DNA from: Acidobacteriota bacterium
Lineage (GTDB): Bacteria > Acidobacteriota > UBA6911 > RPQK01 > JAJDTT01
Direction of reading: 5' to 3'
DNA: 64,000 bases
Assembly (NCBI GenBank): GCA_965209055.1
Contig: OZ242374.1
Location: 2,944,001-3,008,000 of the forward strand
The notes below the pieces were generated by a model, which worked only from the letters and a program-made list of their open reading frames with translations, ran no database searches and was not told the origin of the DNA. Of the stretch, positions 13,551-63,192 are shown piece by piece; position 1 is the stretch's first letter, and each line of letters opens with the position of its first letter. The position numbers and the translations under genes are program-made.

Positions 13551-13746
13551 GGACTGTTGCGTTTCGGAAGGGCCCGAAGGGAGGCTGGCCTCCACGGCGG
13601 CAATATATTCCCCTGCGGACGGCAAATCAATACGAAGATGAGGAGTGAGCAATGGGATAAGGAGGAGAGACACAGGGGCGCACCGGGGAGGGGCCCCTGT
13701 TCCATTGGGAAATGCGTCCGGTTCCCAAAATTTGACGGGTTCCGGG

Positions 13747-13775
13747 TTGACAGGGGTGTGGGATATCGTCAGAAT
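13747..13775 (+). promoter_or_regulatory. sigma70-like promoter of TBDR copy 1
   Basis: TTGACA-17 bp-CAGAAT, retained in copy 2. Confidence 0.7.
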
Positions 13776-13848
13776 GTTGACCGCCTCCCAGGCTCTTCGA
13801 CTGGATATGTGTATCCCAGGCTCAACTAACCTAACGTAGGGGGTCTTA

Positions 13849-16800: not shown

Positions 16801-17073
16801 TTCACAGCTCCGCCTCCAGGCCAGTACGGGAACGCGGGCCGCGGCATCGTGGAAGGTCCGGGCACCATCAACGTGGACTTCTCGCTATTGCGGGATTTCC
16901 ACCTGGGTGAGGAGACCCGGATCCAGTTCCGGTTCGAGGCCTTCAACCTGACCAATCACACCAACCTCAACTCGAACTGGAACACGTTCAACTTCAACCA
17001 CGGATCTTTCGGATCCATTGGTTCGGCGTTGACCGCAAGACAGTTGCAGTTCGGCCTGAAGATCTACTACTGA
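13849..17073 (+). CDS. TonB-dependent receptor with N-terminal carboxypeptidase-regulatory-like domain (copy 1)
   Basis: signal peptide, GTVTDSTGAVIPGA, VTKSGTNELHG, LDARNFF, C-terminal RQLQFGLKIYY. Confidence 0.93.
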   Translation: MDSKRLCLALVLVGLSFGLALGQGDRATVVGTVTDSTGAVIPGAEVYMTQVATNQVHSSLSSDTGQYAMSALPADVYEMRVTMPGFKTEVRSGLKLDVGQSYRIDIELSVGEVAEVVEVASTAPILKTETAEFGQVIDNKKIISIPLNQRDVFGVLGGLTPGVQPLRNVGGVTSGVAFNVRGMRRADNNATLDGSQMSETNGSLQFFANPDAIQEFEVKSGLYGAEYGIKPGGQFSAVTKSGTNELHGTIFWFHRNDNLDARNFFDTGRKNEFKRNQFGAVAGGPVMFPGLYDGRDQSWWFFAYSGERIRQFRSLTGIMPTPAQRSGVFPNTIMDPMTGEPFPNNTIPADRIAPQSRLLGELWPAPNTDISRGFNYTSASNAPGQRNEYIVRMDIKTGDDSRWFGRFLFNQRPITFVNIVDAFTVINGLDNWAQNIVNTRNFGTNVVNELGLHFYRRPYNPGFPPGGPDLANQLNFPNWPKRGVDLRGTPRVSVTGYPTLGSRPNRGPVPEGQWELKENVSWTKGNHYLKAGYHYRYHYVFFGLERRSELYFNQPNWYAGDTLANFYLGYLSGSREGSEARLNHNFPGHYIYLQDSWKATPKLTLQLGLRYELRQGWEDKRGFSTNLKADCALRTENPIPDCYDPPLLPQTLVFPETGRFQPQVNVFTWTKNGFQPRLGLSYRLTDQTVLRIGGGIYGNEPPGGMMYGASALGNPRPNSGQRDFEALAAAPNLFISNPYDESVLVGAGAVTNGGGYEDTMPQWYVPNFGLSLQHRTGQNNMFEIGYEGSRSVHEMQVFRFNDARPGAGPRQERRPWPNMTRYYMLLGNGDQTYHGFNFKWEKRPGQYGLTSLLVFSWGKSIDTTGGRLSVTGDPREVSRNLWADGFTYKNRGRGEGNIPMRLAWLKGWDIPFGPGRAYGSDGFFSQIFGGWSVYAITTLQKGHWYTVSTADLLDAGSNASQRPDLLRDPNSGSRRPESWFRTDAFTAPPPGQYGNAGRGIVEGPGTINVDFSLLRDFHLGEETRIQFRFEAFNLTNHTNLNSNWNTFNFNHGSFGSIGSALTARQLQFGLKIYY

Positions 17074-17095
17074 TCCGGGTTTCAGGCTTGATTCG

Positions 17096-17131
17096 AAAGC
17101 GCGCCTGCCATTGCGGCAGGCGCGCTTTTTT
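17096..17131 (+). terminator. intrinsic terminator (possibly bidirectional)
   Basis: AAAGCGCGCCTGCC-ATTGC-GGCAGGCGCGCTTT plus T-run after the TBDR1 stop. Confidence 0.9.
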
Positions 17132-17510
17132 GTGGTTGAAAGAGGGTGGGCGGTTCTGCTCAGGCGCAGTAGCCGCCGTTGTAGCACTTTGCCATGGACC
17201 GGAACCAAGCACTTCGCGCCCTCACCGAGTCGGGCTGACCCAGCCGTCGGCGCCGTCTCCTGTCCCCACTCCACGAACCGGCCATCGATCCGGGGATCCT
17301 CAGATTTGGTCTCGGTCGTTTCGGCCTCATTGGGGCCTCAAACCGGTCCCTTCTGGCCGGACTGACCTCCATGTCCATGCCCCGCCACCCCTGATCCCCC
17401 GTCCTCTTGGGCCAAGGACCCCGAAGAACCTGTCGCCCCTCTTCGCACGTCGTGGAGAGCACTCCACAATTGAACAGAGTGAGATCGCCCTCTAATTGGA
17501 CTAATCCAGG

Positions 17511-17539
17511 TTGACAGGGGTATGGGATACCGTCAGAAT
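17511..17539 (+). promoter_or_regulatory. sigma70-like promoter of TBDR copy 2
   Basis: TTGACA-17 bp-CAGAAT. Confidence 0.7.
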
Positions 17540-17613
17540 TTCGAACGCCTCCCAGGCTCTTCGAGTGACTGTGTGTATCCCAGGCTCAACTAACCTAACG
17601 TAGGGGGTTTTGA

Positions 17614-20600
17614 ATGGATAGCAAACGATTGTGTCTCGCGCTGGTTCTGGTGGGACTGAGCTTCGGCTTGGCCCTGGGACAGGGAGACCGGGCTACGGTG
17701 GTGGGAACCGTCACCGACAGCACGGGCGCAGTGATTCCAGGCGCCGAGGTTTACATGACTCAGATCGCCACCAACCAGGTCCACTCCTCGCTCTCCAGCG
17801 ACACCGGCCAGTACGCCATTTCGGCGCTGCCGGCGGACGTGTACGAGATGAGGGTCACCATGCCCGGCTTCAAGACGGAGGTCCGCTCCGGTCTGAAGAT
17901 GGACGTGGGACAGAGCTACCGCATCGACATCGAGTTGAGCGTCGGTGAGGTGGCCGAGGTGGTGGAGGTCGCCTCCACCGCACCCATCCTGAAGACGGAG
18001 ACGGCGGAGTTCGGACAGGTGATCGACAACAAGAAGATCATCAGCATCCCGCTGAACCAGAGAGATGTCTTCGGTGTTTTGGGCGGTCTGACGCCGGGCA
18101 TCCAGCCTCAGCGGAATGTCGGCGTCGTCACCAACGGTGTGGCCTTCAATGTACGGGGGCTTCGGCGAGGTGACAACAATGCCACGCTCGACGGTTCTCA
18201 GATGAGCGAGACCAACGGCTCGCTCCAGTTTTTCGCCAACCCCGACGCCATTCAGGAGTTCGAGGTCAAGAGCGGCCTCTACGGCGCCGAGTACGGCATC
18301 AAGCCGGGCGGGCAGTTCAGCGCCGTCACCAAGAGCGGCACCAACGAGCTGCACGGCACCATCTTCTGGTTCCACCGCAACGACAACCTGGATGCCCGGA
18401 ACTTCTTCGACACCGGCCGCAAGAACGAATTCAAGCGGAACCAGTTCGGCGCCGTTGCCGGCGGACCGGTCATGTTTCCGGGCCTCTATGACGGTCGCGA
18501 CCAGTCCTGGTGGTTCTTCGCCTACAGCGGTGAGCGGATCCGCCAGTTCCGTTCGTTGACGGGCACTGTGCCTACGGCGGCCGAGCGGGGTGGCGTGTTT
18601 TCCAGCGCCATCATGGATCCCATGACGGGTGAACCGTTTCCCAACAACACCATTCCCGCCAACCGGATCACTCCTCAGTCCAAGCTGCTGGGTGACCTCT
18701 GGCCTACCGCCAATACCCCCATCAGCCGGGGATTCAACTACACCAGCGCCTCCAATGCTCCGCAGGAGCGGAACGAGTACATCGTCCGGATGGACATCAA
18801 GACGGGCGACGACAGCCGCTGGTTCGGCCGTTTCCTCTTCAATCAGCGGCCCATAACGTTTGTCAACGTCGTTGACGCCTTCACCGTCATCAACGGCTTG
18901 GACAACTGGGCCCAGAACGTGGTCAACACCCGGAATTTCGGGACCAACATCGTCAACGAGTTGGGGCTTCACTTCTACCGTCGGCCCTACAATCCCGGCT
19001 TCCCGCCGGGCGGGCCCGATCTCGCCGACCAGTTGAATTTCCCCAACTGGCCAAAGCGGGGCGTGGATCTCTTTGGAACTCCTCGAGTCGCAGTGACCGG
19101 GTACCCGACAATCGGATCCCGCCCCAACCGTGGCCCCGTTCCCGAGGGTCAGTGGGAGATCAAGGAGAACGTCAGCTGGACCAAGGGCAATCACTACCTG
19201 AAGGCGGGTTACCACTACCGGTACCATTACATCTTCTTTGGCCTCGAGCGGCGTAGCGAACTCCACTTCAATACTCCGACGCGCTATACCGGAAACGCCT
19301 TGGCCAATTTCTACCTGGGCTATCTGAGTAACTCTCGAGAGGGAAGCGAAGCCCGCCTGAACCATAACTTTCCGGGTCACTACATCTACTTGCAGGACAG
19401 TTGGAAAGCCACTCCCAATCTGACCCTGCAACTGGGGCTCCGGTATGAGTTGCGCCAGGGTTGGGAAGATAAACGCGGGTTTTCCACCAACCTCAAGGCC
19501 GAATGTGCGATGCGTACGGAGAGTCCGATTCCAGATTGCTATTCGCCCCCTCTGCTCCAACAGACCCTCGTGTTTCCCGAGACCGGGCGGTTCGACCCAC
19601 AGGTGAACATCTTCACCTGGACCAAGAATGGCTTTCAGCCCCGCTTGGGTCTTTCCTATCGGTTGACAGACCGGACCGTGTTGCGTGCCGGCGGCGGAAT
19701 CTATGGGAACGAGCCTCCGGGCGGCATGCTGTACGGTGCCGCGGCGCTCGGAAATCCCAGGCCTAATTCGGGCCAGCGAGACTTCCCGGCCGATGCAAGC
19801 TCTCCGAATCTGTTCATCGACAACCCCTACGACGAGGCGGTCCTGAAAGGTACTAGTGGCCAGCTACTTCCGGGGGGTGGATATGAGGACGTGATGCCCC
19901 AATGGTATGTGCCCAACTGGGGAGTGTCGGTCCAGCATCGCGCTGGTGAAAACAACATGTTCGAGATTGGATACGAGGGTTCGCGCTCAGTGCACGAGAT
20001 GCAAATTTTCGAATTCAACGACGCGGTTCCCGGGACTGCTCCCCGTCAGGAAAGACGGCCTTGGCCCTCGATGACCCGGTATCACATGCTCTTCGGCAAT
20101 GGTGACCAGTCGTATCACGGCTTTAACTTCAAATGGGAAAAACGGCCAGGTCTGAATGGATTGACGTCACTCTTGGCCTTTAGTTGGGGCAAGAGTCTCG
20201 ACACGACTGGCGGACGTTTGGGAATCGTTGGCGACCCGCGTGGTGTGACCCGAAACCTCTACGCCAACGGATTCAGCACCAAGAACAAGGGGCTGGGCGA
20301 GGGCAATATCCCGCTTCGACTGGCTTGGTTGAAGGGTTGGGACATTCCATACGGCCCCGGTCGTGCCCATGGCAGCGATGGCTTCTTCGCCCAGATATTC
20401 GGTGGTTGGAGCCTGTATGCCATTACGACTCTCCAGAAGGGACAGTGGTATACGGTTTCGACCACAGATATGCTGGACGTGGGAAGTAACGCTTCTCAAC
20501 GACCGGATCTGGTGGGCGATCCCAATACCGGCAGCAGGCGTGCCGATTCCTGGTTCCGAACGAGTGCTTTCGCAGCGCCGCCTCCGGGACAGTACGGGAG

Positions 20601-20841
20601 CGCCGGGCGTGGCATAGTGGAAGGTCCCGGCACCATAAACGTGGATTTTTCGATGCTTCGAGATTTTCACTTGGGTGAAGAGACCCGGATCCAGTTCAGA
20701 ATGGAGGCGTTTAATCTGACCAACACCACGAATCTGAATCCGAACAACAATACCTGGAATTTTAACGCCGGACAATTCGGCTCCATCGGATCGGCCCTGA
20801 CCGGAAGGCAGTTGCAGTTCGGCCTGAAGATCTACTACTGA
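17614..20841 (+). CDS. TonB-dependent receptor (copy 2, close paralog)
   Basis: same architecture; near-identical N-terminus and identical last residues to 13849-17073. Confidence 0.93.
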   Translation: MDSKRLCLALVLVGLSFGLALGQGDRATVVGTVTDSTGAVIPGAEVYMTQIATNQVHSSLSSDTGQYAISALPADVYEMRVTMPGFKTEVRSGLKMDVGQSYRIDIELSVGEVAEVVEVASTAPILKTETAEFGQVIDNKKIISIPLNQRDVFGVLGGLTPGIQPQRNVGVVTNGVAFNVRGLRRGDNNATLDGSQMSETNGSLQFFANPDAIQEFEVKSGLYGAEYGIKPGGQFSAVTKSGTNELHGTIFWFHRNDNLDARNFFDTGRKNEFKRNQFGAVAGGPVMFPGLYDGRDQSWWFFAYSGERIRQFRSLTGTVPTAAERGGVFSSAIMDPMTGEPFPNNTIPANRITPQSKLLGDLWPTANTPISRGFNYTSASNAPQERNEYIVRMDIKTGDDSRWFGRFLFNQRPITFVNVVDAFTVINGLDNWAQNVVNTRNFGTNIVNELGLHFYRRPYNPGFPPGGPDLADQLNFPNWPKRGVDLFGTPRVAVTGYPTIGSRPNRGPVPEGQWEIKENVSWTKGNHYLKAGYHYRYHYIFFGLERRSELHFNTPTRYTGNALANFYLGYLSNSREGSEARLNHNFPGHYIYLQDSWKATPNLTLQLGLRYELRQGWEDKRGFSTNLKAECAMRTESPIPDCYSPPLLQQTLVFPETGRFDPQVNIFTWTKNGFQPRLGLSYRLTDRTVLRAGGGIYGNEPPGGMLYGAAALGNPRPNSGQRDFPADASSPNLFIDNPYDEAVLKGTSGQLLPGGGYEDVMPQWYVPNWGVSVQHRAGENNMFEIGYEGSRSVHEMQIFEFNDAVPGTAPRQERRPWPSMTRYHMLFGNGDQSYHGFNFKWEKRPGLNGLTSLLAFSWGKSLDTTGGRLGIVGDPRGVTRNLYANGFSTKNKGLGEGNIPLRLAWLKGWDIPYGPGRAHGSDGFFAQIFGGWSLYAITTLQKGQWYTVSTTDMLDVGSNASQRPDLVGDPNTGSRRADSWFRTSAFAAPPPGQYGSAGRGIVEGPGTINVDFSMLRDFHLGEETRIQFRMEAFNLTNTTNLNPNNNTWNFNAGQFGSIGSALTGRQLQFGLKIYY

Positions 20842-20863
20842 TCCGGGTTCCAGGCTAAATTCG

Positions 20864-20901
20864 AAAGCGCGCCTGCCATTGCGGCAGGCGCGCTTTTTTT
20901 T
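20864..20901 (+). terminator. intrinsic terminator between convergent TBDR2 and SDR genes
   Basis: same hairpin as 17096-17131 with a longer T-run. Confidence 0.9.
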
Positions 20902-20928
20902 GTGCTGAAAAGGGTTGTGCGATTCTGC

Positions 20929-21705
20929 TCAGGCGCAGTAGCCGCCGTCCAGCAGGATGGTGTGGCCGGTGACGTAGGCGGAAGCCTCGGAAGACAGGAA
21001 GACCACCGACCCCTTGATGTCGTCGTATTGGGCCATGCGGCCCAGGAAGGTGTTGCTGCAATATTGGGAGAGGAAGGGTTCCGTCTCGCCTCCGAGAGCC
21101 AAGCCTCCGGGGGCGATGGCGTTGACCCGGACCCCCTTGGGTCCCGCCCACGCGGCCAGGTACTTGGTCAGGCCGATCATGCCGTGCTTGTGGAAGTGGT
21201 AGTCGGGCGGCGTGGTCATGTCGGTGCCGGCGTAGTTTCCGAAGTTGGGCGCCACCACCGACTGGATGGAGCCGATGTTGACGACGGCGCCCTGTCCCCG
21301 CTCCATCATCCGGTCCACGAACGCCCGGGAGATGGCGAAGAAACCGGTGGAGTTGACCACCATGGATCGCTCCCAGGTTTCCAGCGGGTCGGTGTAGGCT
21401 CGCATGGTCCGGGCCACCGAGTTGTTGACCAGCACGTCGACGGCGCCGAACTGTTTCCAGACCCGATCACAGAACTCCAAGATTGACGACTCGCTCCCCT
21501 GGTCGAACCCGTCGCCGCTGGCCGAGAGCCCCCTCCCTTCCAGCTCAAGTGCCCAGTCCTCGCATCGCTGCCGGTTTCTGGAGGCGATAACAACGTGGGC
21601 TCCGGCCTCGGCCAGTCCCTCGGAAATGGGCATGCCGTAGAACCCGGTGCCGCCGGTGACGACCGATACCTTGCCGGTGAGATCCAGAAGCTGCTTGACG
21701 TTCAT
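20929..21705 (-). CDS. short-chain dehydrogenase/reductase
   Basis: TGGTGFYG, YxxxK (YHFHK), VRVNAIAPG, DGG. Confidence 0.93.
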   Translation of the reverse strand: MNVKQLLDLTGKVSVVTGGTGFYGMPISEGLAEAGAHVVIASRNRQRCEDWALELEGRGLSASGDGFDQGSESSILEFCDRVWKQFGAVDVLVNNSVARTMRAYTDPLETWERSMVVNSTGFFAISRAFVDRMMERGQGAVVNIGSIQSVVAPNFGNYAGTDMTTPPDYHFHKHGMIGLTKYLAAWAGPKGVRVNAIAPGGLALGGETEPFLSQYCSNTFLGRMAQYDDIKGSVVFLSSEASAYVTGHTILLDGGYCA

Positions 21706-21729: not shown

Positions 21730-23007
21730 ATGCCTTCGAAACGGAGATTGATCCCCATCGCCAAATCTACAAGCAGAGGAGCCGTAGCAGTGGTCCTGCT
21801 CCAGATATTGGTTGCCGCAGACGTCTCGGCCGAGGAGAAACAGGGCACTGAACCGGCGGAGTGGACGACTGCCCAGAAGCTGGCCGGAAAGTACGGTTGG
21901 CCCTATGTGGCGGGGCACAAGGGGCTCTCCCGCCAGGAGATCGTCTTTCCCCGGGTCCGGGGCCTGCAGGTGATCAAGGCGGACCTCCACATCCACACCA
22001 TCTACTCCGATGGCCAGGTCCTGCCCGAAACTCGTGTCTGGGAAGCCTGGCGGGACGGTCTGGATCTGATGGCCATCACCGATCATCCTGAGTACATGAG
22101 GCTGGCCCTGCCCCAGGACCGGGAACGAGCCTACGGCCGGGCCCTTCCGCTGGCCCGGGCCCTGGGTCTGATGCTGATTCGGGGTGCCGAGCTGACGACC
22201 CTTTCGGGACCGACATACAAGGATGAGGACTCGGATCACGTCGTCGCTTTCGTTCAGGACGAGAGTCCCTTTTTCGACGACTTCGACACGGCGGTCCGGT
22301 CGGCCCGCGACCAGGGAGCCGTCATCATCTGGGCCCATCCCGGCCCTCGATGGGTCCGGGACGCCACCCGCCTTCTGAAGTTGGGGTGGCTGGACGGGAT
22401 CGAATTGAGGAACGGCGGCCGAAAAGGGGGGAAGGGGATTGGATACCACCGGGGAGAACCGTACTTCTCCGAGGTGATGGACTGGTGCCTCGAACACGAC
22501 CTGGCCGTCATCGCCTCGTCGGATGCTCACTGGCCCATCGACCAGATGGTCGACCGGAGCCGGGGAGAACGCCGGGAAATGACCCTGGTCCTGGCTGAGC
22601 GCCGGGGCGAGACGTCGATCCGGGAAGCCATCAAGGCCCGGCGCACCCTGGCTTATTTCGGCGAGATGATCTGGGGGCGGGAAGAGTGGCTCCGCGCTCT
22701 GGCCGAGAGCTCACTCCGTTTTAGTGTCACTCCAAGCGTCCAAGAGAATCGGAAACGCCACTTCCTGTCCGTTGCAAACTCCTCCTCCTTCCCCTTTCGC
22801 ATGAAGGTCTTCAGGGCGGGAGATGAAATGGCCGCGGGTCTCCGGGAGGTGCGAATTGCGGAGCGGGGACGGACCGTGGCTCCCGTCAGCGTGAAAGAGG
22901 GGGAGACAGGCGTTCGGCTGGTCATCACGTTCACCAACCTTCTTTCCGGCGCGGACCGGCCGCTTGTCATGGAACGGCGACTGCAGGTTCCGGGAGGACC
23001 ACCATGA
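21730..23007 (+). CDS. PHP-domain metal-dependent phosphoesterase-like protein, probably exported
   Basis: DLHIHTIYSDG, AITDH, WAHP, SSDAH motifs. Confidence 0.85.
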   Translation: MPSKRRLIPIAKSTSRGAVAVVLLQILVAADVSAEEKQGTEPAEWTTAQKLAGKYGWPYVAGHKGLSRQEIVFPRVRGLQVIKADLHIHTIYSDGQVLPETRVWEAWRDGLDLMAITDHPEYMRLALPQDRERAYGRALPLARALGLMLIRGAELTTLSGPTYKDEDSDHVVAFVQDESPFFDDFDTAVRSARDQGAVIIWAHPGPRWVRDATRLLKLGWLDGIELRNGGRKGGKGIGYHRGEPYFSEVMDWCLEHDLAVIASSDAHWPIDQMVDRSRGERREMTLVLAERRGETSIREAIKARRTLAYFGEMIWGREEWLRALAESSLRFSVTPSVQENRKRHFLSVANSSSFPFRMKVFRAGDEMAAGLREVRIAERGRTVAPVSVKEGETGVRLVITFTNLLSGADRPLVMERRLQVPGGPP

Positions 23008-25871
23008 GTTCCGCGTACCCCGTCCCGGCCATCGCCGCTCTTGTGGGACTCCTGTTTGCATGTGCCCCTCCGGCAGAAACACTCCAGGCTCCTGTGCAGG
23101 AAGGCCGGGAGGTCTGGAGGGAGTCCAGCTTCGCCGATTTCGCCGACGGGACCCTGACCGACGGTGGGGCCAACACATACGTCGGGGCGGATGGGAGCGT
23201 CCGGCTCATCAACGAACTGGACCTGAACCAGGACGGGCTCATCGACCTGGTCCTTCCGGGAAGCCACGACAACAACTTCGACATGGAAGCCTGGATCTAC
23301 TGGGGACGGGACGATTTGGACGCCGGCAGCCGGACCGCGCTCCCGGGGGAGGGCGGCCAGGACGTGGCCATTGCGGACCTGAACCGGGACGGCCATCCGG
23401 ACCTGGTGGTGGCCAAGGGCTACAACGGCACCCGGACCGAGAACCGGTCGGCCCTCTATTGGGGAAGCGAATCCGGGTTCGACGCCGAGCGAAGGACCGA
23501 TCTGCCGACGGTTTCGGCCCAGGCCGTGGCCACTGGCGATCTGAACGGCGACGGTTACCCGGAAGTGGTCTTCGCCAGCAACGGCCTCTCCTACCAGTTC
23601 ACCCGGGAGGGGAACGACTTCAGCGTGGTGCGGCCGGTTTCAGACATCTACTGGGGCTCGGGGGACGGCTATTCTCCCCGCCGAACCACGCAGTTGCCCA
23701 CCCGTTTCGCCCGCGACGTGGCCATTGCCGATCTGAACCGGGACCGGGCGCCCGATCTGGTCTTCGCGGTTCAGGACTACAAGGGCGAACCGGGTGGAGT
23801 GCTGGTCTACTGGGGATCCGAATCCGGCTACTCGGCGGATGCCTCCCTTTGGCTGGAAGGGTTGGGAAGCGTGGCTTTGATCGCCGCCGACTTGAACGGC
23901 GACGGCTGGCCCGACCTGGCGGTGGCCAACGAGACGGCGCCCGGCTTCGACGCGGATGCCGGAGGGATCGCCGTCACCCCGATTCCCAGTTACGTCTACT
24001 GGGGGGCTTCCGGGGGGTTCGATCCGGAGCGGCGGACCGCGTTGCCCGGCTGGCGGGCCCGGGGCATCGAAGCCGCCGATCTCGACCGGGATGGGCATCC
24101 CGATCTGATCCTCTCCAACCAGGCGGGCCATGCGTCCTTCATCTACTGGGGGTCGGCAGACGGATTTCGGCCGGATCTCAGAACGGCCCTGCCCACGCTG
24201 GCCGCCGGCGCCAGCACGGCCGCGGATCTCAACGGGGACGGCTATCCGGACCTGGTCTTCGCCAACGAGAAGAGCGACGAGAGCTACGACGTCTCCTCCA
24301 CCGTCTACTGGAACGGACCAAGCGGATTCGATCCCTCCCGCCGGCTGGAATTGCCGACTCGAGGCGCGTTGTCGGTGGCAAGCGGCGACCTGGACGGCGA
24401 CGGCAAGGGCGATCTGGCGTTTGCGCAGAGCAAGGACGGCTATGCGTCCGACAAAGCCCCCAATGCCTACATCTACTGGGGCCGGACCGACGGGGACTAT
24501 TCTCCTGAGGACCGCTGGACCTTGCCCTACTCCGGCCTGAGCGCGGCCAACATCGCCGACCTCGACCGGGACGGCTGGACCGACCTGGTGCTGGCGGGGC
24601 AGATCGACATCTTGTGGGGGACGCCCGAAGGACTCTCCCGGACCGGGACCACCCATCTCCCCACGCGGAGGGGTTTCAGCGTGGTGGTGGCGGACTTCAA
24701 CCGGGACGGATACCTGGACCTGAGTCTCAGCGAGTGGACCCACGGCCGGGACGAGATGAGCCTCTTCTGGGGCGGTCCCGCAGGCTATCGGATGGACAAC
24801 CGCTTCATCCTCAAGTTTCCCGACGTGCGGCTCCACAAGGCGGCGGACCTGGACCGGAACGGCTATCTGGACCTGCTGTTTACCGGGACCAGCGACCGCG
24901 TGGCCATCTTCTGGAACGGACCCGGCGGATTCGACAACCGCAACGTCCAGCATCTTCCGTCCAAGATGGCCGTCGGAGCCGAGATCGGGGACCTCGATGG
25001 CGACGGATACCTGGACATCGTGATCTGCAATCTGTACGACCTGGAAAAGCTCCGGACCGACGAAGGCGAGCGCGCCATCGACGCGGAGCCCCAAGCGGCC
25101 CCGTTCGCTGCCGGCACCGCCGTTTACTGGGGAGGGGAAACGGGATTCTCGGAGAATCGCATGCTGCTCCTGGACACGGTCGGGAGCGAGGATGCCTCCA
25201 TCGCCGATTTGAACCGGGACGGCCGCCTGGACCTGGTGGTTTCCAGCTACCACGCCGGCGCCAATCGGCATCACCCGTCCTACGTCTTCTGGGGCGCCGA
25301 GTCGGGACTCGACCCGAAACCGGTCCTTTTGCCCACCGATTCCGCCTCCGGCGTGATGGTGGCGGATTACAACCGGGACGGGCACGACGACATCTTCTTC
25401 GTCTGCCACACCAAGGGAGGAAATCATCGCACCGACTCCTTCCTTTATTGGGGCTCGGAGGCGGGATTTTCCACCGGGAGGCGGCTCCTGGTTCCGACCC
25501 GCGGCGCGCACTGGGCGATTCATCACGACGTGGGAAACGTCTACGACCGCGCTCCCCGCTACGATTACATTTCCGCGCCGTTCCGTCTGCCTGAAAACGG
25601 CCAGGTCGAGAGCCTGAGCTGGAAGGCGCGGACTCCGCATGAGACCTCCGTTGATTTCCAGGTCCGGGGTTCGGAGACGCGGGAGGGTCTTGGTGCTTCC
25701 GAGTGGTCCGGTCCCGACGGACCGGGAAGCCGATACACTCGGCCGGGCGCCCGTTTGGATGGACTCGGCGGCAACACCCGCTGGATTCAATACAAGGCGT
25801 CACTGGTTTCGCCCGGAGGCGTCAACTCGCCGGTCTTGGAGCAGGTTGAGATAAGCTACCAGGGCGAATAG
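23004..25871 (+). CDS. FG-GAP/VCBS-repeat lipoprotein
   Basis: lipobox LFAC; many ADLNxDGxPDLV and IYWG repeats. Confidence 0.9.
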   Translation: MSSAYPVPAIAALVGLLFACAPPAETLQAPVQEGREVWRESSFADFADGTLTDGGANTYVGADGSVRLINELDLNQDGLIDLVLPGSHDNNFDMEAWIYWGRDDLDAGSRTALPGEGGQDVAIADLNRDGHPDLVVAKGYNGTRTENRSALYWGSESGFDAERRTDLPTVSAQAVATGDLNGDGYPEVVFASNGLSYQFTREGNDFSVVRPVSDIYWGSGDGYSPRRTTQLPTRFARDVAIADLNRDRAPDLVFAVQDYKGEPGGVLVYWGSESGYSADASLWLEGLGSVALIAADLNGDGWPDLAVANETAPGFDADAGGIAVTPIPSYVYWGASGGFDPERRTALPGWRARGIEAADLDRDGHPDLILSNQAGHASFIYWGSADGFRPDLRTALPTLAAGASTAADLNGDGYPDLVFANEKSDESYDVSSTVYWNGPSGFDPSRRLELPTRGALSVASGDLDGDGKGDLAFAQSKDGYASDKAPNAYIYWGRTDGDYSPEDRWTLPYSGLSAANIADLDRDGWTDLVLAGQIDILWGTPEGLSRTGTTHLPTRRGFSVVVADFNRDGYLDLSLSEWTHGRDEMSLFWGGPAGYRMDNRFILKFPDVRLHKAADLDRNGYLDLLFTGTSDRVAIFWNGPGGFDNRNVQHLPSKMAVGAEIGDLDGDGYLDIVICNLYDLEKLRTDEGERAIDAEPQAAPFAAGTAVYWGGETGFSENRMLLLDTVGSEDASIADLNRDGRLDLVVSSYHAGANRHHPSYVFWGAESGLDPKPVLLPTDSASGVMVADYNRDGHDDIFFVCHTKGGNHRTDSFLYWGSEAGFSTGRRLLVPTRGAHWAIHHDVGNVYDRAPRYDYISAPFRLPENGQVESLSWKARTPHETSVDFQVRGSETREGLGASEWSGPDGPGSRYTRPGARLDGLGGNTRWIQYKASLVSPGGVNSPVLEQVEISYQGE

Positions 25872-25909: not shown

Positions 25910-26842
25910 ATGGACAGGGAACTGCTGACCTGGTTCAACGGCCGGCTGGTTCCGGATTCCGAGGTCCGGATCCATCACACCGACTCCGGCCTCAGCTTCG
26001 GCCACAATGTGACCGACTCGGCGCGGACCTTCGGGTACCGCCCCTTCAAGCTGAAGGAGCACATCGGCAGGTTCTACCGCTCCATGTCGGTGGCCCGGAT
26101 CAATCCCGGCATGACTCCCGAGCGGATGGAAGAGATCGCACTGGAGGTGCTGGAGGCGAATCGTCCCGTCCTGGACCCGGACGGTGACGTGTGGGTCACC
26201 CAGACCGCCACCGGAGGCCGGATGCGCAGCACCATCGGACGTTTCGAGTTCGACCGTCCCGGGCTGCTCATCGCCACACTGCCGCTGGGCTTCGCCGATT
26301 ACGCTCACCTCTACGAGAAAGGGGCCCACGCCGTGACCCCCTCGACCCGGCATATCCCGCCCCAGTCGCTGGACGCCAAGCTCAAGCACCGGAACCGGAT
26401 CTTCTTCACCCTGGCTGAATTCGAGGTCAAGGAGGTGGACCCGGAGGGTTTCTCTCTCCTTCTGGACATCGACGGCAACGTGACGGAGAACAAGGGGGCC
26501 AACTTCTTCATCTACCGTGACGGACGCCTGAGGACGCCCACGACCCGGAACTGCCTGGAGGGAGTCAGCCGGGCCACGGTGCTGGAGCTGGCCCGGGAAG
26601 AAGGGATTCCCGCGGTGGAGGAGGACTTCCAGCCCTACCATGTGACCACCGCGGAGGAGGCCTTCTTCTGCAGCACCTCCTATTGCATGCTCCCGGTGAC
26701 CCGCTACAACGGCAATGTGCTGGGCGAGGGCCGGCCGGGACCCGTCTATCGCCGGCTGATCGGCGCCTGGAGTAGAAGAGTAGGAATGGATATTCCGGAA
26801 CAGGCGCTCCGAGGAGCGGCGACTTGGAGCGGCGGTTTCTAA
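25910..26842 (+). CDS. aminotransferase class IV (branched-chain/D-amino acid type)
   Basis: WFNG, GLSFG, KLK, ENKGANFF, CLEGVSR, EEAF. Confidence 0.9.
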   Translation: MDRELLTWFNGRLVPDSEVRIHHTDSGLSFGHNVTDSARTFGYRPFKLKEHIGRFYRSMSVARINPGMTPERMEEIALEVLEANRPVLDPDGDVWVTQTATGGRMRSTIGRFEFDRPGLLIATLPLGFADYAHLYEKGAHAVTPSTRHIPPQSLDAKLKHRNRIFFTLAEFEVKEVDPEGFSLLLDIDGNVTENKGANFFIYRDGRLRTPTTRNCLEGVSRATVLELAREEGIPAVEEDFQPYHVTTAEEAFFCSTSYCMLPVTRYNGNVLGEGRPGPVYRRLIGAWSRRVGMDIPEQALRGAATWSGGF

Positions 26843-26847
26843 CCGCC
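26826..26847 (+). repeat. REP-like palindrome containing the aminotransferase stop codon
   Basis: GGAGCGGCGGTTTCTAACCGCC. Confidence 0.75.
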
Positions 26848-27022
26848 GGCCAGGGGGGGGTAGGGGGGACGGCAACACACCCATTGAATCCAGCGATATC
26901 CCAAGAGATCCCGGAATATCTTTTAAGTGGTTGGTTTTCTTTAGTTTATACCTGTTCTCACCCCGTTTCTTCCTCCCCTGACGTCCCTTGATATCCATCT
27001 CTATCCCGTTTATTATGGTGTA

Positions 27023-28258
27023 ATGGGTGATGTAATCAGTGCTCCCCTTTTGCCCCGGAAGACCAAGCCGAAGGGCCGCCACCCCCACAAGGCGCTCTCC
27101 GCCGCTTTCGTGCGCTCCGCCCCACCGGGCAAACACTGCGACGGCAACGGACTCTACCTCTTCGTCAAGCCTAACGGAGCACGAAGCTGGATCCAACGCC
27201 TCGTCATCCGCGGCCGCCGCCGCGACTTCGGACTCGGCGGTGTGGCACTGGTGTCCCTGGCCGAGGCCCGCGAGAAGGCGCGGGCCAACCGCAAGCTGGC
27301 CCGCGAAGGTGGGGATCCCCTGACCGAGAGACGCCGCACGCACAACATGCCCACCTTCGCCGAAGCCGCCGAGCGGGTGGTGGAGCAGAAGCGGTCCGGC
27401 TGGCGCAATCAAAGGCAGGCCCACGACTGGATGGCGAGCTTTCGACGCTACGCCTTTCCTCACATCGGCCGGATGCCGGTCTCGGAGGTGACCAGCGGCG
27501 ACGTCCTGGAGATCCTCGTGCCCATCTGGCACGTGAAGTCGCGCACGGCCCGGACCGTGCGACAGCGCATCCGCACGGTCCTGGAGTGGGCCGTGGCGAT
27601 GGAATACCGGACCGACAACCCCTGCGACCGGGTCGTGTCGGTGCTCGGAGCACAGGACGACGTGGTGCGGCACATGCCGGCCTTGCCGCATCGCGAGGTG
27701 GGGGCGGCCCTCCGGAAGGTGCGGGCCTCCAACGCGATGCCCGTGTCCCTGCTGGCCTTCGAGTTCCTGGTGCTCACGGCGGCGAGGTGGGGCGAGGTGC
27801 GGTGGGCCGAGTGGCTGGAGATCGATCCGGCGCAAGGGATGTGGACGGTTCCCGGAATCCGCATGAAGACCAAACGGGCGCACCGGGTGCCTTTGTGCCG
27901 CCGGGCGAATGAGATCCTGGAGAAGGCACGCACGCTGGATCATGGAGCCACCCGGTTGATCTTCGCCCGAAGGGGCGGAAAGCCGCTCGGCTCCGGCCGG
28001 TTGCGCAAGCTGCTGCGCCGGAACGGGATCGCCGCCGTGCCGCACGGGTTCCGGTCGAGTTTCCGGGACTGGGCGGCCGAGGAGACGGATCATCCACGCG
28101 AGGTGGTCGAGGCGGCGCTGGCGCATGTGGTGAAGAACAAGGTCGAGGCGGCGTACCGGCGCACGGACCTGTTCGAGCGTCGGCGTCGGCTCATGGAGGA
28201 CTGGGCGAGCTATCTGGCTGGCGAGAGTCCGGAACGGGTGGCCGGCCGGCTCCGTTGA
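27023..28258 (+). CDS. P4-type tyrosine integrase with arm-binding domain (start may be TTG 27050)
   Basis: DGNGLYL..SW..GLG..VSLAEARE arm domain; catalytic R (TAARWGE), K, HGFR, LAH, Y all present. Confidence 0.93.
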   Translation: MGDVISAPLLPRKTKPKGRHPHKALSAAFVRSAPPGKHCDGNGLYLFVKPNGARSWIQRLVIRGRRRDFGLGGVALVSLAEAREKARANRKLAREGGDPLTERRRTHNMPTFAEAAERVVEQKRSGWRNQRQAHDWMASFRRYAFPHIGRMPVSEVTSGDVLEILVPIWHVKSRTARTVRQRIRTVLEWAVAMEYRTDNPCDRVVSVLGAQDDVVRHMPALPHREVGAALRKVRASNAMPVSLLAFEFLVLTAARWGEVRWAEWLEIDPAQGMWTVPGIRMKTKRAHRVPLCRRANEILEKARTLDHGATRLIFARRGGKPLGSGRLRKLLRRNGIAAVPHGFRSSFRDWAAEETDHPREVVEAALAHVVKNKVEAAYRRTDLFERRRRLMEDWASYLAGESPERVAGRLR

Positions 28259-28481
28259 TCCGCCGTGGTGGTTCTCCCGGCAGGCTTCGTGATCTGGGGT
28301 TCGAGCCGGATTCCGGGAGGTCGATCTTGACCGCTGAAAAGTGGGGTTCCGTGCCGCTCGGGGAGTGCACCTGAGACAATGGGGGGCATGTGCACCATGA
28401 GGGCTCTTCGATGTGCACGGCACCGTTCCTCTAACTTGCTGTCCCCATTCGGGTTACGGCTCGCCTCGCGGCTCGGCGGCA

Positions 28482-28623
28482 CCGCTCGGGGAAAGCGGAG
28501 GTGGACGGGAGCGACCCCCCTTTTTTGCCTCCCGGATCGGCAAAGCGGGGCAGGCTGATGCGCACTGACCGTGCCATCGCCTCGGGGGGTCGCTCCCGTC
28601 CCAATGATCCCTGCCGGGAAGGC
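28482..28623 (+). ncRNA. structured non-coding motif copy A (RNA or ssDNA structure, function unknown)
   Basis: 18-bp perfect inverted repeat 28503-28520 / 28584-28601 enclosing two hairpins; homologous flanks in three other copies. Confidence 0.45.
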
Positions 28624-29107
28624 CTCTGGATCGCCTGAGCGCGTGGCGGTGCGGCACGGAACGGCGCGGTGGGCAGGCCGCCGCGTGCCAGTGCTCGTAC
28701 AAGCGTCTGTGGACGGCCCCGATGGCTGGACGGAGTGATCTGGCGGATCGAACAGGCAATCTTCTTCCAGAAATGCGGAGTGTGCTGAAAGGGACGCGGG
28801 CCGATTCGACGGCTATGGCAGCGTCAGGGCCTCGCTGAGACCGGCCATCGAGTGGCGACCAGGGGCGGAAGATCGCGCCGCCGGCGTGGAGATCGACGAC
28901 GACGTTCGCGACGCTCTCGTGGCGGGCGACACGCTTGCCGGGGAGCTCATTTTGACGGGTACAGAGCGCCCCACCGTGTCGATCCGGGAGTGTAAGGGAG
29001 ACAACGGGGGCAACTTACATCATGGGAGTCTGCCAACTTACACACGCGATTTCTCCGATCTCTTTGTCGCTCATGCTGTTACGGCCACATTCCCGGCTCC
29101 GCCGTGC

Positions 29108-29248
29108 CCGCACGGGGAAAGCGGAGGTGGACGGGAGCGACCCCCCCCTTTTTCCTGCCCGGTGCGGGCGCGGGGGCGTGGCGCAACTTACATCTGCGCC
29201 ACACCCCCTGGGGGGGTCGCTCCCTTCCAAAATATCCCTGCGGGAAGC
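29108..29248 (+). ncRNA. structured non-coding motif copy B
   Basis: GGGAGCGACCCCCCC...GGGGGGGTCGCTCCC stem with two inner hairpins. Confidence 0.45.
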
Positions 29249-29789
29249 CCCGGAGAAGAATCCGGAAGACCTGTCAGGGCTCTGCCAGGCGTCCGTTCTC
29301 GACACGCGGTGCAGGATCCAGGCATGACCACAGGCGACACGTGCCAATGGGGTCCGCAGGTGCAGGTGGATTTTCGGCGTCCTCTTGGACGAGGAGGTGG
29401 ACCGAACCCCGGAAGGCCTGAACTCGGAACGGCAGGCGGAGGTTCGCGTCGGGGTCCGCTCCAGGCCCAGCCCCCGATCCAGGGCCTGGCCGACGAGGCG
29501 GCCGGTGCGGGTGGTGGTGGTCCGGCCGTCGAGAGCCGCCTCCACGCCGTGGTGGCACCGGAGCAAGCGGCGGTCGAAGCGCAGGGCGCGGTTTCTCCGG
29601 CAACCCGGAACGGATGACGGACCGGGGGAACCGATCCCCCCAGACCCCTCAGTGGCGCCAGAACCCCTGGCGGCTCACCTTGCCGCCAGTGAACCTGGCG
29701 CTTCTGTTCGTCGCGCGTCCCATGAGAATGGGACCCTCACGCGGTCTCCTCGGCCTTCCAGCCGGGAGTGAGACGTTCGCCCGTTTCCG

Positions 29790-29876
29790 GCAGTCCTGGC
29801 CAATCGGACCCGGTCAGCTCCGAATGTCCGCCCCCAATTCCCGGAGCGCGCAGGCGCTTGAAACCTGGGAGTCGAG
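29790..29876 (+). pseudogene. N-terminal remnant of the 362-aa tyrosine recombinase
   Basis: WPIGPGQLRMSAPNSRSAQALET versus intact WPHGSGRLRMYAPNYRSAQALQT. Confidence 0.8.
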
Positions 29877-30167
29877 GCGAGAAACTCGTCCATGGAGTCC
29901 ACGGACCTCCAATAGGGTCGAATGGAATCCCGTTTAGAAGGTGGGATGTAATGATGTAACCTGCTCGGGAGAATAGATCATAACTACTTTATTATCAGAT
30001 ACTTAAGAGATCGTTTCCGTAGAGGGGACGGCAGTCCCCCCTTTACGCTTATCCACCGCTGACTCGCACGGAAAAAGGAAGAATGGGGGACTAACAGTCC
30101 CGCGCTCTGTCCTGCTGAGCTTGGGGCGCTTGCTTTTATTTTCAAGGGGTTACGCCACTGCTCTCCT

Positions 30168-31256
30168 CTAGTCATTCCCCCTATTTCCTGCCTGTTGCCT
30201 GTTTGTTGCCGGGCGCATTTGTGAGTCTTCGGTAGCCTGTGCCTCCCGAATGCTGGCCAGCGCGTGGGAACTGACGTACCCGGCGTAGCGCATCGTCGTG
30301 CTGATTGCCGAGTGACCCATCAGCTTCTGCACCGTCCTCACGTCCACCCCCTGCATCAGCCAATGGCTGCACCGGAATCGTCTCAGGTCGTGAAATCCGA
30401 CCTTCAACCCCACCCGCTCGGCGGCCCGGCGCAACGGCTTGTCCGGATTCACCCATCTCGTCCCGGTCCGGGTGTTGACGAAGACGTAAGGGGTGTTCAG
30501 GTAGCGAACCAGCCCGGCCAGGTATCCAGCAGCGTACTTCGACAGCGGGATCTCCCTCGTCTCGTCGTTCTTGGTGAATTCCACCCATAGCAGCCTCCGG
30601 GATAGGTCCACCCGTTTCCAGGTGAGCGACAACGCTTCGCCTTTTCGAATCCCCGTCTCGCCGATCACCGCAACCATGGCTTGCAGGTATGGGTTGTCCA
30701 TTGCCCCGACCAGGTCGCGGAACTGTTGAACCGTCAAGGGCCGGAAGACCTTCTTGGGTTCTTTCAGTTTGGGGAATCTCACCAGCGGGTGCGTGTCCAC
30801 TTCCCCGCACTCCAGCGCGTAGGAAAACAGCTTGCTGATGGCGGCGATGTCGCGGTTCACCGTGGCCGGCTGCACTTGCTTCTTTCTCTTGGCGACGTAG
30901 CGGTACAGGTCCTTGCGTTGGAACTCCTTCAGGGGAATGTTCCCCAGCATGGCGTTGAGGCTCTTGAAGGAGAGCGCATAGCGACGCCGGGAGCGCATGC
31001 GAGGTTTGCAGTACTCCTCGAAGAAACGCTCGTAGAAGCTCCGGACCGTCCAGACGGTGCGGTTCCCGCCGGCGAGTTCCTCCTTGAGCTGCTTCCATGT
31101 GCCGTCCAGGATGCTGGACTCGATTCGTGTTTGAAGCGCCTGTGCGCTCCGGTAGTTGGGGGCGTACATTCTGAGCCGACCGGATCCGTGCGGCCAGTAC
31201 TTGCTGACGACATAGCGTCGTCTCCCCCGGCGATCCTTCACCTTGTAGATGCCCAT
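30168..31256 (-). CDS. tyrosine recombinase/integrase, 362 aa
   Basis: RBS AGGAG before MGIYKV; PATVNR, TGIRKGE, TKN, FHDLRR, MGHS, RY. Confidence 0.95.
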   Translation of the reverse strand: MGIYKVKDRRGRRRYVVSKYWPHGSGRLRMYAPNYRSAQALQTRIESSILDGTWKQLKEELAGGNRTVWTVRSFYERFFEEYCKPRMRSRRRYALSFKSLNAMLGNIPLKEFQRKDLYRYVAKRKKQVQPATVNRDIAAISKLFSYALECGEVDTHPLVRFPKLKEPKKVFRPLTVQQFRDLVGAMDNPYLQAMVAVIGETGIRKGEALSLTWKRVDLSRRLLWVEFTKNDETREIPLSKYAAGYLAGLVRYLNTPYVFVNTRTGTRWVNPDKPLRRAAERVGLKVGFHDLRRFRCSHWLMQGVDVRTVQKLMGHSAISTTMRYAGYVSSHALASIREAQATEDSQMRPATNRQQAGNRGND

Positions 31257-31916
31257 AGCATCTCCTCCTTTCTGGATCCGGGTTCTTCGCCGTGGGGCGA
31301 ATCCTACCACGGCGCCAGAGAATCGACGTCGGCGTTCAGGTCCTTCAGAGCGAGGACGCGGCGGCGGCTCCATCCAGATCACAACGGCGGGCCGATTTCG
31401 TCCTGGTCCGCGATTCCGGCAAGCCGGAACGGATGACGGACCGGGGGGAACTCTCCCCCCAGACCCCCCAGTGGCGCCCTCAAAGAGTCAGGCTCACCAT
31501 GCCGGACTCTTTTTCACGCGCTCCTGTTTGTCGCGTCCCATATGAATGGGTCCCTCGCGCGGTCTCGGACGGCTTCCAGCCGGGAGCAGGATTTCTTTCG
31601 TGGAAGGTGCTGATTGTGGGGTCAGCAAAACGACGCACCCTGTGGGAAATCTCTGATTTTCCACACGGTGGGGAGGCTCGAACCCAGGGCCTCGGCGCTC
31701 ACTGGAAGGGATTTTCAGTTGGTAGGTGTCTCTTCTTCTTGTCCGGTCAAAATCTTTCTCGTAGCTCTGACAGCCACAGCGCGGACAGCGGTAAGCGCGG
31801 CGGCCGCGGAGCTTCTCCACCGCCTGCTTCCTGAGGGCCTCCAGCCGTTCCTGGTTGTTGTGGATATCAGGGATGCTCCTGCATCCCATCTTGCCCGTCA
31901 GGGTGTCATCTCTTGC

Positions 31917-32058
31917 CTTCCCGCTAGGGATAATTTCGACGGGAGCGACCCCCCCAGGGGGTGCTGCGCAAATGTGAATTGCGCAACACCCCCGCGCCCG
32001 CACTGGGCGGCAAAAAGGGGGGGTCGCTCCCGTCCACCTCCATTTTCCCCGTGCGGCC
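31917..32058 (-). ncRNA. structured non-coding motif copy C
   Basis: near-identical reverse complement of copy D. Confidence 0.45.
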
Positions 32059-32790
32059 ACCCGGTGGCCGGAAATGGGGCCGCAACTGACTGAAAGGAAA
32101 AAAGATCGGGGAGAGTGCATTTGTGAGTCACCGGGACCGCTTTTTGTGAATCCACCCCCTTTGTCCCATTCACATCCCGGAGCGGGCGCGAGACCCTCTT
32201 GACGCACTGCCGAAACGAGCCTCCATTGGCCCTTGCGACTGCCAAGTGCGTTCACCGTCAATCACGACCTGGAAGGAGCGACTTTCCGCCGCTGGTTGCA
32301 ACTCGACCGCCCGCTTCAGTGCGGCCGTCACCCTGCCTTAGGAGTTGAGGCGGCCCTGGTCGGTCGAGTGCCCCGGAATCGACACGGACGACGACGGTCC
32401 GGTCGGCCTCGACGGCAATCGGCGGCTTGAGCGCGAAGTCGCATCGGGTCTTCCCCACCGTGCCGTAGTACAGTTGCCGGGGATGCCGATTCTTGGGAAT
32501 GCCCCGCCGTTCGAAGCCGGACACCTTCGGCCTCAGGCAGAGTCCTCCGGTGGGGCCAAACGGTCGGCAAAGCCAATCGGATAAGGTCTTTGAGCCAGGC
32601 AACGGAAGGGGAAAAAGGGCGCGTCGGCTTTCAGGAACCGATCCGGCTGCCTGTTTGTTGCCTGTTCAGTATGTCAAACATGGGGAGTCAATCACTTTTC
32701 CGATTCGGCGAAGAACCCGGTAAATGATTGAAAACGTTAACGTTCGGTAGTCTTTGACTGTGGGACAGTTGGGACTAACAGTCCCCCCTC

Positions 32791-52068: not shown

Positions 52069-52240
52069 AGGAGCGGCGGTTGCCAAGCGCCGAACTCTGG
52101 AGCGAACGTGTGGAGCATGGAGGAGAGGGCGATTGGAAATCGCCCCTCCTTTTTCGAGGAATGGAGCGGCGGTTTCCAACCGCCGGATCCCCGTGGAGCA
52201 TGGAGGAATGGGCGGTTGGAAATCGCCCCTCCTTTTTCGT
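52069..52240. repeat. BIME-like tandem of two REP doublets upstream of ahcY
   Basis: unit GGAGCGGCGGTT(G/T)CCAA(G/C)CGCC...GTGGAGCATGGAGGA...GGGCG(A/G)TTGGAAATCGCCCCTCCTTTTTCG occurs twice. Confidence 0.85.
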
Positions 52241-52258
52241 AGAAGGGAAACCAGACTC

Positions 52259-60379: not shown

Positions 60380-60716
60380 TCGTACGAAACACTCCCGTTG
60401 GAAAAGCCTTGCACGATTATATCCCGCCACCGCGACTTCCTTCCACCTGGGCCGGGGACTGTTAGTCCCAACTGTCCCACAGTCAAAGACTACCGAACGT
60501 TAACGTTTTCAATTATTTACCGGGTTCTTCGCCGAATCGGTAAAGTGGTTGACTCTCCATGTTTGACATGCTGAACAGGCAACAAACAGGCAGCCGAATC
60601 GGTTCCTGAAAGCCGACGCGCCCCTTATCCCCCTTCCGTTGCCTGGCTCAGAGACCTTATCAGATAGGCTTTGCCGACCGTTTGGCTCCACCGGAGGACT
60701 CTGCCTGAGGCCGAAG

Positions 60717-61070
60717 ATGTCCGGCTTCAAGCGGCAGGGCATTCCCAAGGATCAGCATCCCCAGCAAGTGTACTACGGCGCGGTGGGGAAGACCCGCCGC
60801 GACTTGGCGTTCAAACTGCCGATTGCCGTCAAGGCGGACCGGACCGTCTTCGTCCGTGTCGATCCGGAGCACTCGACCGACCAGGGCCGGCTCAACTCCT
60901 AAGGCAGGGTGACGGCCGCCCTGAAGCGGGCGGTCGAGTTGCAACCAGCGGCAGAAGTTCGCTCCTTCCAGGTCGGGATTGACGGTGAACGCACTTGGCC
61001 GTCGCAAGGGCCAATGGAGGCTCGTTTCGGCAGTGCGTCAAGAGGGTCTCGCGCCCGATCCGGGATGTGA
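60717..61070 (+). pseudogene. degenerate hypothetical gene fragment inside the element
   Basis: protein-like frame YYGAVGKTRRDLAFKLPIAVKADRTVFVRVDP with in-frame TAA at 60900; frameshifted in copy 1. Confidence 0.45.
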
Positions 61071-61183
61071 ATGGGACAAAGGGGGTGGATTCACAAAAAG
61101 AGGTCCCGGTGACTCACAAATGCACTCTCCCGGATCTTGTTTCCTTTCAGTCAGTTGCGGCCCTATTTCCGGCCACCGGGTGG

Positions 61184-63119: not shown

Positions 63120-63192
63120 AGGAGAGCAGTGGCGTAACCCCTTGAAAATAAAAGCAAGCGCCCCAAGCTCAGCAGGACAGAGCGCGGGACTG

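Follow-up and report, generated by a model that had tools for sequence, protein, structure and literature searches.

The closest described counterpart of the locus treated here is the oriT2/TraX/TraW region of the Enterococcus faecalis plasmid pAD1. Francia and Clewell in 2002 and Francia et al. in 2013 reportedly found a large inverted repeat in oriT2, placed beside a set of repeats and between the genes of the relaxase and the coupling protein, and relatives of oriT2 are said to retain the inverted repeat and to vary the repeats. TraX belongs to the MOBC relaxases, which are related to PD-(D/E)XK enzymes; its N-terminus is a winged HTH, its catalytic domain is of the PD-(D/E)XK type, and it binds five direct repeats 70-120 bp from nic (PMC12857230). 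A second relevant case is that of the iOriTs, integrative elements carrying only an oriT; that study deals with six nosocomial species and states that hitchers and helpers have no relationship other than through the oriT (Ares-Arroyo et al., bioRxiv 10.64898/2026.01.13.699239).

The folded motif studied here was noticed in a 64-kb stretch of an Acidobacteriota genome, hereafter the window, and it is most likely the inverted-repeat core of a predicted oriT from a family of integrative conjugative elements. As in pAD1, there is a conserved large inverted repeat with class-specific short repeats 70-140 nt away, a gene for a predicted wHTH and nuclease-fold protein, here called P0001, on one side and a coupling-protein gene on the other. 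The differences are also clear. The hosts here are MAGs of Acidobacteriota and Gemmatimonadota, and a search of the PLSDB plasmids with the module and with P0001 gave no match. By sequence, P0001 shows no detectable likeness to Pfam Replic_Relax. Furthermore, one copy of the repeats is inverted and another is found at a hairpin tip within the large inverted repeat, which itself has the form of a three-way junction. We consider it fairly probable that the motif is the oriT of a pAD1/TraX-like (MOBC-like) system, amplified in this genome in oriT-only hitchhiker elements. A literature search, with supplements outside its scope, found no prior description of the module.

All four copies located by an earlier note on this DNA were recovered: copy A (GTGCAC class) at 28482-28623 (+), copy B at 29108-29248 (+), copy C at 31917-32058 (-) and copy D, to which copy C is 99% identical, at 61184-61325 (+). 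The four are real, but the whole 6.08 Mb genome holds 63 places by blastn, three of them shortened to less than 125 nt. From 5' to 3' the motif consists of P1, GGAGG, P2 around a T-run, P3 and P4, a linker, P5 and AGG. P1 is a hairpin with a stem of 4-6 bp, next to which stands the conserved GGAGG; P2 is a 19-bp stem that encloses the T-run, a 5-bp hairpin (P3) and a 14-bp hairpin (P4, or inner hairpin 2). A linker of 6-8 nt separates the P2 stem from P5, a TCCC/GGGA stem with a 3-4 nt loop and AGG directly 3' of it. The outer stem of 19 bp, the T-run at the junction and the two inner hairpins are as the earlier note had quoted them, and the G-T pair of copy D and the replaced inner hairpins of copy A were seen as well. 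The pieces CCGC..GCGG (5') and TCCC..GGGA (3') that it listed are also present, but we prefer to read them as two local hairpins, P1 and P5. An outer closing stem, 5' GGGGA with 3' TCCCT, came out of single-sequence fold prediction and is disfavoured as compared to local P1 and P5; the TCCC/GGGA of P5 becomes TCCT/AGGA in several copies, and CCGATC/GATCGG variants occur. The motif as a coding sequence was ruled out by inspection, the ORFs that cross it being broken by C-run/G-run indels in other copies. The extent first proposed was ~140 nt; the conserved unit extends ~190 nt farther upstream. The motif is the conserved core of a non-coding module of ~330 nt, which begins in the final codons of the P0001-like gene and stops shortly before the coupling-protein gene.

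The motif is a real, strongly conserved folded element. The folding energy of copy D is -98.7 kcal/mol, while 200 shuffled versions average -62.65 and none of them folds as well (z = -8.95); the opposite strand of copy D gives the weaker fold, -89.6 kcal/mol (z = -7.96). An alignment of 54 distinct motif sequences (A1) was the source of a covariance model, R1. Of 61 genomes from the order to which this genome belongs, itself counted, 23 contain R1 matches at E up to 0.001; the positive genomes include all eight other members of the genus and several other families, with scores of 30-110 bits. For the covariation we used 83 distinct sequences from many genomes. Paired cells made up 87.1% as compared to 73.6% after shuffling, two-sided changes were found in 37 of the 46 pairs, and there were 444 double-change cells as compared to 143 in the shuffled alignments, a number reached by none of 500 shuffles, with slid controls giving 50-100; the alignment had been fitted to the model, and kin among the sequences inflate shuffle tests of this type. 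P2 alone gives GGGAGC/GCTCCC, GATAGC/GCTATC and GAGAGC/GCTCTC. Compensatory change, which the earlier note proposed to look for with a covariance model and collected homologs, is far above chance by these double-change counts, and the fold is under selection.

A strand test that compared G-U with A-C cells gave a mixed result, the G-U excess being found only in some helices (40 vs 9 in P3, 67 vs 27 in P4) and P2 showing no strand bias (24 vs 32). The compensatory changes and the G-U excess of P3 and P4 would fit a structured RNA, which could be the leader at the 5' end of the coupling-protein operon or a processing product of that leader, and it speaks for this that the motif is always sense relative to the downstream gene. 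In Gemmatimonadota a Shine-Dalgarno-like GGAAGG at the 3' end lies 10-15 nt before the ATG of the coupling protein and is overlapped by P5, which could there be a ribosome-site hairpin, a hint of RNA. Still, we find the RNA unlikely. P2 lacks the bias, no promoter-like or terminator-like site flanks the motif within the window, and Rfam gave 0 matches at the gathering score in the 64-kb window. At E up to 10 there were eight weak matches, none credible and the C4 antisense family not among them; the best, a plastid 3'UTR hairpin on the opposite strand, had 27.4 bits against a gathering score of 53.1, in agreement with the earlier remark that the motif stands outside the known Rfam families. 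A tRNA/tmRNA scan of the window found none. Frpo is a leading-region single-strand promoter, and an Frpo-like function was rejected by reasoning; the better-folding strand is the sense of the downstream genes and cannot be the template.

In intact elements the gene order is P0001 gene, boxes, motif and type IV coupling protein gene. The single complete conjugative cluster of this genome, at 1.826-1.846 Mb, has the order primase-helicase, VirB4, TrbI, TrbL, VirB8, P0001, module, coupling protein, VirB11 and ArdC. In another genome (G020) the gene directly behind the motif codes for a coupling protein of 763 aa (TraG-D_C and TrwB_AAD_bind domains), and a VirB11-type ATPase comes next. When species genomes were scanned with the P0001 alignment, 554 loci were confirmed, and the best 80 of the 554 were analysed. 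They belong to Acidobacteriota, to Gemmatimonadota, mostly Longimicrobiales, and in a few cases to contigs that had been binned as Gammaproteobacteria or Chloroflexi. A same-strand R1 match stood ~150 nt past the stop of the P0001 homologue at 73 of the 80 loci (71 full, 2 partial). The remaining ones comprise six without an R1 match and one with an opposite-strand copy alone, farther on. Where the downstream side was examined, at L081 and in the cluster of this genome, the next gene after the motif is the coupling protein and not a recombinase.

This location, next to the genes with which a conjugative element processes its DNA and makes its coupling protein, is that of a generic oriT, and it is because the motif is sited between a nuclease-like DNA-binding gene and a coupling-protein gene that it is likely to be the start site of transfer. 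The earlier note had offered two guesses. An integrase-associated ncRNA does not agree with the constant neighbours, which are the P0001-like gene and, where examined, the coupling protein gene, the integrase side being the one that varies. The other guess, an ssDNA origin (oriT or sso), is the one that the evidence favours, and the interpretation given in the note is thus supported in part. In three Longimicrobiales loci, L155 (3581-4024), L161 (3582-4021) and L178 (3579-4018), two complete modules of different box classes are placed tail to tail, ~147 nt apart and without a coupling-protein gene in between.

Inside the window the motif is carried by small integrase elements. Copy D belongs to a D-type integrative element of 2.75 kb at 60454-63202 (+), and copy C to an inverted copy of it at 30085-32786 (-), the arms being 90-97% identical. 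The longest ORF of the tyrosine recombinase of the D-type element is 61818-63119 (+), with an internal ATG near 62031 as the likelier start. The right end, 63158-63202 (+), resembles the 5' half of a tRNA through the anticodon stem-loop, the likeness covering the acceptor stem, the D arm and the anticodon stem-loop; the left end, 60454-60469, repeats the core GGGACTGTTAGTCCC, and this 15-nt core is thus found at both ends, with variant cores in other copies. A second type of element, 3.2 kb at 26826-30062 (+), has a P4-type tyrosine integrase (27023-28258, +; Arm-DNA-bind_3, Phage_int_M and Phage_integrase domains), and behind it stand modules A and B, arranged in tandem. In the whole genome there are ~27-30 copies of the D-type ends with integrase, and 16-19 copies of the integrase part of the second type.

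Directly upstream of module D, between it and the left end, are P0001-like pseudogene pieces at 60711-61028 (+; 3004711-3005028 in genome coordinates), corresponding to about aa 126-184 and 256-307 and with an in-frame stop, and two sister copies of the D-type element elsewhere in the genome keep a fragment of a coupling protein after the motif. The small elements are decayed derivatives of conjugative elements, left with integrase, ends and module. A module that survives together with the integrase and the element ends is what a cis-acting transfer site predicts, and retention in derivatives without transfer genes is required of a cis-acting oriT; the cis activity itself is predicted. The numbers in this genome go in the same direction, 63 motif places as compared to six full-length P0001 homologues and one full coupling protein gene. 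For the RNA leader discussed above, it is a difficulty that the module is kept in elements without the gene to be regulated and that it lies downstream of the integrase in one type of element.

The tyrosine recombinase is the only intact gene in both types of small element, and it is conceivable that the recombinase uses the motif, either as an integration guide RNA or as an oriT on which it would act like the recombinase-like relaxases TcpM and MpsA. Relaxases resembling tyrosine recombinases exist (PMC8152469, PMC12857230). We regard this explanation as extremely unlikely, since the partner of the motif at the 73 loci is a P0001-like gene, the gene that follows at L081 and in the complete cluster is the coupling protein, and the two integrases of the window are of unrelated types, the P4 type and another, one upstream and the other downstream of the motif. 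The loop words (ATTCACA etc.) also have no match to the end cores ACTGTTAGT, ACTAACAGT, ATTTCCAAT and TTTTCCTAT. In an IS110 bridge RNA the loops are complementary to the ends or the target; inspection of the loop words against end cores and flanks showed no common word, and the earlier observation that the loops do not match the att cores stands.

The small elements, predicted to be oriT-only hitchhikers, can be compared with the iOriTs. Like these, they consist of an integrase and the module and have no relaxase or mating-pore genes. Here they outnumber the one complete conjugative cluster of the genome; unlike the iOriT hitchers they are decayed copies of the helper type, with P0001 pseudogene pieces, and they are very small (2.75-3.2 kb) and occur in tens per genome.

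The surroundings of the elements gave some further observations. Of 31 left flanks 16 end in GGAGG by our count, and right flanks often start with CTCCT or are T-rich; the D-type elements look inserted into the loop of terminator-like hairpins. Two hairpin copies of the form GGAGG..GGCGATTGGAAATCGCC..CCTCC, followed by a T-run, are found at 52110-52165 and 52193-52248, with a loop region that is the reverse complement of the end-core variant ATTTCCAAT, and these may be empty target sites. The inverted element copies at 30085-32786 and 60454-63202 flank 27.6 kb (32787-60453). Recombination between the two may have inverted this segment, because the left flank is the usual GGAGG in copy C but not in copy D. 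Elsewhere in the genome, five motif copies (at 1583389, 3374862, 3165149, 4508757 and 1608715) depart from the consensus at one point, after ATCC(C/T)T..GCGG in P5, and continue in a common AT-rich tail with a GGACT..AGTCC hairpin. These could represent a third type of element, or a junction made at the nick site. Two other repeats of the window are a tandem duplication of ~3.77 kb (13741-17179 and 17505-20948; 78-97% identical in pieces, with a ~1075-aa ORF per copy) and five diverged 77-nt repeats at 23356-25262, within a 955-aa ORF (23004-25871) whose repeated peptide we take to be of FG-GAP/VCBS type.

The upstream part of the module contains short boxes, 70-140 nt from the inverted repeat of the motif. 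Box1, often preceded by box0, has one orientation and is followed by a conserved spacer resembling GGGACAAAGGGGG, and box2 and box3 have the opposite orientation; box1 and box2 form an inverted pair, and box2 and box3 are direct repeats ~23 nt apart. In copy D the box region is 61066-61118 (+), with box1 TGTGAAT at 61066-61072, the spacer GGGACAAAGGGGG at 61073-61085, box2 ATTCACA at 61089-61095 and box3 ACTCACA at 61112-61118. The apical loop of P4 displays the word once more, ATTCACA at 61261-61267 (+; box4), the word of boxes 2 and 3 and the reverse complement of box1. Copy C has its boxes at 32168-32174, 32145-32151 and 32122-32128 (-) and the same loop word, ATTCACA, at 31973-31979 (-). 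In copy B the boxes are TGTAAGG at 28991-28997, ACTTACA at 29013-29019 and ACTTACAC at 29036-29043 (+), and the tip of P4 shows ACTTACA at 29186-29192 (+). The boxes of copy A are at 28364-28372, 28387-28395 and 28410-28418 (+); its related word, GATGCGCAC at 28557-28565 (+), is ATGTGCAC-like and located in the stem of inner hairpin 2, outside any loop.

That the word in the P4 loop repeats the upstream boxes had been missed in the earlier note. The word is 7-9 nt long and differs by class, with GGGGCA, GGGACA, GTACCA, GCGGCA, GCGCAC, GGACAC, GTACAC and GTGCGC among those in other genomes and more than 12 classes overall; the TTCACA class looks commonest in the motif listings of this genome. 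Of 190 distinct modules, 96 have a word of at least 7 nt that occurs both in the P4 tip and in the box region; when the pairings were permuted 300 times, the number was 35 on average and 48 at most. In several lineages loop and box1 are exact reverse complements of each other along 9-10 nt, e.g. ATTCACATC, CCATTCACA, ATGTGCACTC and TTTGCGCAC. Loop and box do not match in L155, L130, L192, L106, L107, L109, L066, L063 and ~12 copies from the same genus, and in such discordant modules the loop word is often the box word of another element.

The complementarity of loop and box1 is also what the structured RNA would make use of. The apical loop would pair with box0 or box1 of its own or related transcripts, a cis-encoded antisense control giving class-specific 'immunity', for which P4 CI RNA and P1 c4 RNA are the systems to be likened. 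Against this, the word of the GTGCAC class is in a stem and not in a loop, and the box class tracks the DNA-binding helix of P0001. It is also conceivable, but in our opinion quite improbable, that the word at the P4 tip is a single-stranded nucleic-acid address that pairs with box1/box0 ~200 nt upstream, a base-pairing lock separating self from non-self among conjugative elements. A kissing contact on the transferred strand or on a transcript would then, besides the winged helix, decide nicking, termination or silencing. If this were true, the common words and the matches of loops to foreign boxes (L106, L107, L109, L104, L072) would mean cross-targeting and not decay.

P0001 is a protein of 310 aa with 3520 homologues at E up to 0.001. 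Pfam gave no family for it, one chance-level match alone appearing at E up to 10, and no match for three other unknown proteins of the conjugative cluster in this genome. The ESM Atlas returned unnamed clusters only, and Foldseek with the whole model nothing at E up to 0.001. The relaxase families PF03432, PF03389 and PF13814 had 0 matches in this genome; the last of these is Replic_Relax, the MOBC criterion, which P0001 did not match at E up to 10 either. The AlphaFold model of P0001 has a pLDDT of 86, and the C-terminal 216 residues modelled alone 84. The N-terminus resembles a MarR-type winged helix (Z 7.1, rmsd 4.2, 87 aligned residues), and the top structural matches of the C-terminal part are mostly PD-(D/E)XK nucleases, NucS (2vld, Z 7.5, 103 aligned) and SdaI (Z 7.2, 120 aligned), followed by AF1548 (Z 6.8), CdiA-CT (Z 6.7) and N.BspD6I (Z 6.3), and lower down BstEII, Can2, McrC, FokI, AgeI and SgrAI; all Z scores are below 8, where the tool warns of a possible merely common arrangement. 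A MarR-like winged helix joined to a PD-(D/E)XK-like nuclease fold is therefore a consistent lead, short of proof.

Residues of the HTH region sort into signatures that are paired with box classes (70 loci). HPEQ occurs with TTCAC boxes in 19 of 19 cases, HH(E/D)(R/Q) with GCGCA boxes in 22 of 24, (D/N/S)R(W/F)(Q/K/R)A with GTGCAC boxes in 15 of 19, two of the four exceptions being GTGCGC variants by our reading, and H(R/S)xTA with GGACAC boxes in 3 of 4. The correlation overstates co-evolution, and shared descent explains much of it, because the P0001 gene and the boxes are adjacent and inherited together. More informative cases on the specificity of protein, loop and box are the hybrid modules L152, L161 and L180, which have one common box region that combines a GCGCA-class box1 with TTCAC-class boxes 2 and 3. 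Their P4 loop tracks the class of the protein, TTTGCGCAC with the GCGCA-type protein (L152) and TTTTCACAC with the TTCAC type (L161, L180); L155 is a counter-example. The HPEQ signature is found in none of the six full-length P0001 homologues of this genome, and the TTCACA-class copies are therefore without a resident partner.

The winged helix allows for yet another explanation, that the module is a double-stranded regulatory region where P0001 acts as a MarR-type repressor or activator on the boxes as operators, with no nicking, and where the inverted repeats of the motif are a further operator or cruciform DNA governing the transfer operon. The MarR-like N-terminus, the inverted pair of box1 and box2, the ~23-nt spacing of the direct repeats and the recognition-helix signature that follows the box class all agree with it. 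It leaves the 46 covarying base pairs unexplained, operators conserving sequence and not pairing, and it accounts neither for the nuclease-like C-terminal domain nor for the retention of the module in elements without regulator or operon. We hold it to be very unlikely.

For the origin of transfer that we favour, the following course can be proposed. The winged helix of the P0001-like protein would read the short boxes, each class of element having its own 7-9 nt word, in one orientation as box0/box1 and in the other as box2/box3, with the same word displayed at the P4 tip within the large inverted repeat. With the protein held in this way, its PD-(D/E)XK-like domain would be placed to cut a single strand within or next to the conserved stem and 3' tail (ATCCCT.GCGGGAAGG), and the T4SS would receive the nicked strand from the coupling protein. 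As nic, the conserved 3' tail together with P5 is no more than a candidate. Having lost the conjugation genes and kept integrase, ends and module, the small elements of the window would have to be mobilised in trans, by a conjugative element whose specificity fits. An oriT whose DNA is also transcribed as a leader would reconcile the evidence on the RNA side with that on the DNA side. What would be unusual is that a hairpin within the inverted repeat carries the specificity word on its tip.

The module and P0001 constitute a candidate transfer origin and a candidate non-canonical relaxase for a large family of conjugative elements in two poorly studied phyla, Acidobacteriota and Gemmatimonadota; in this genome the standard relaxase models find nothing. 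The match between recognition helix, box and hairpin tip would provide a natural swap table for how oriT specificity is coded. If the prediction of the oriT is right, this is also an example of how one genome has been filled with tens of minimal hitchhikers consisting of an oriT and an integrase.
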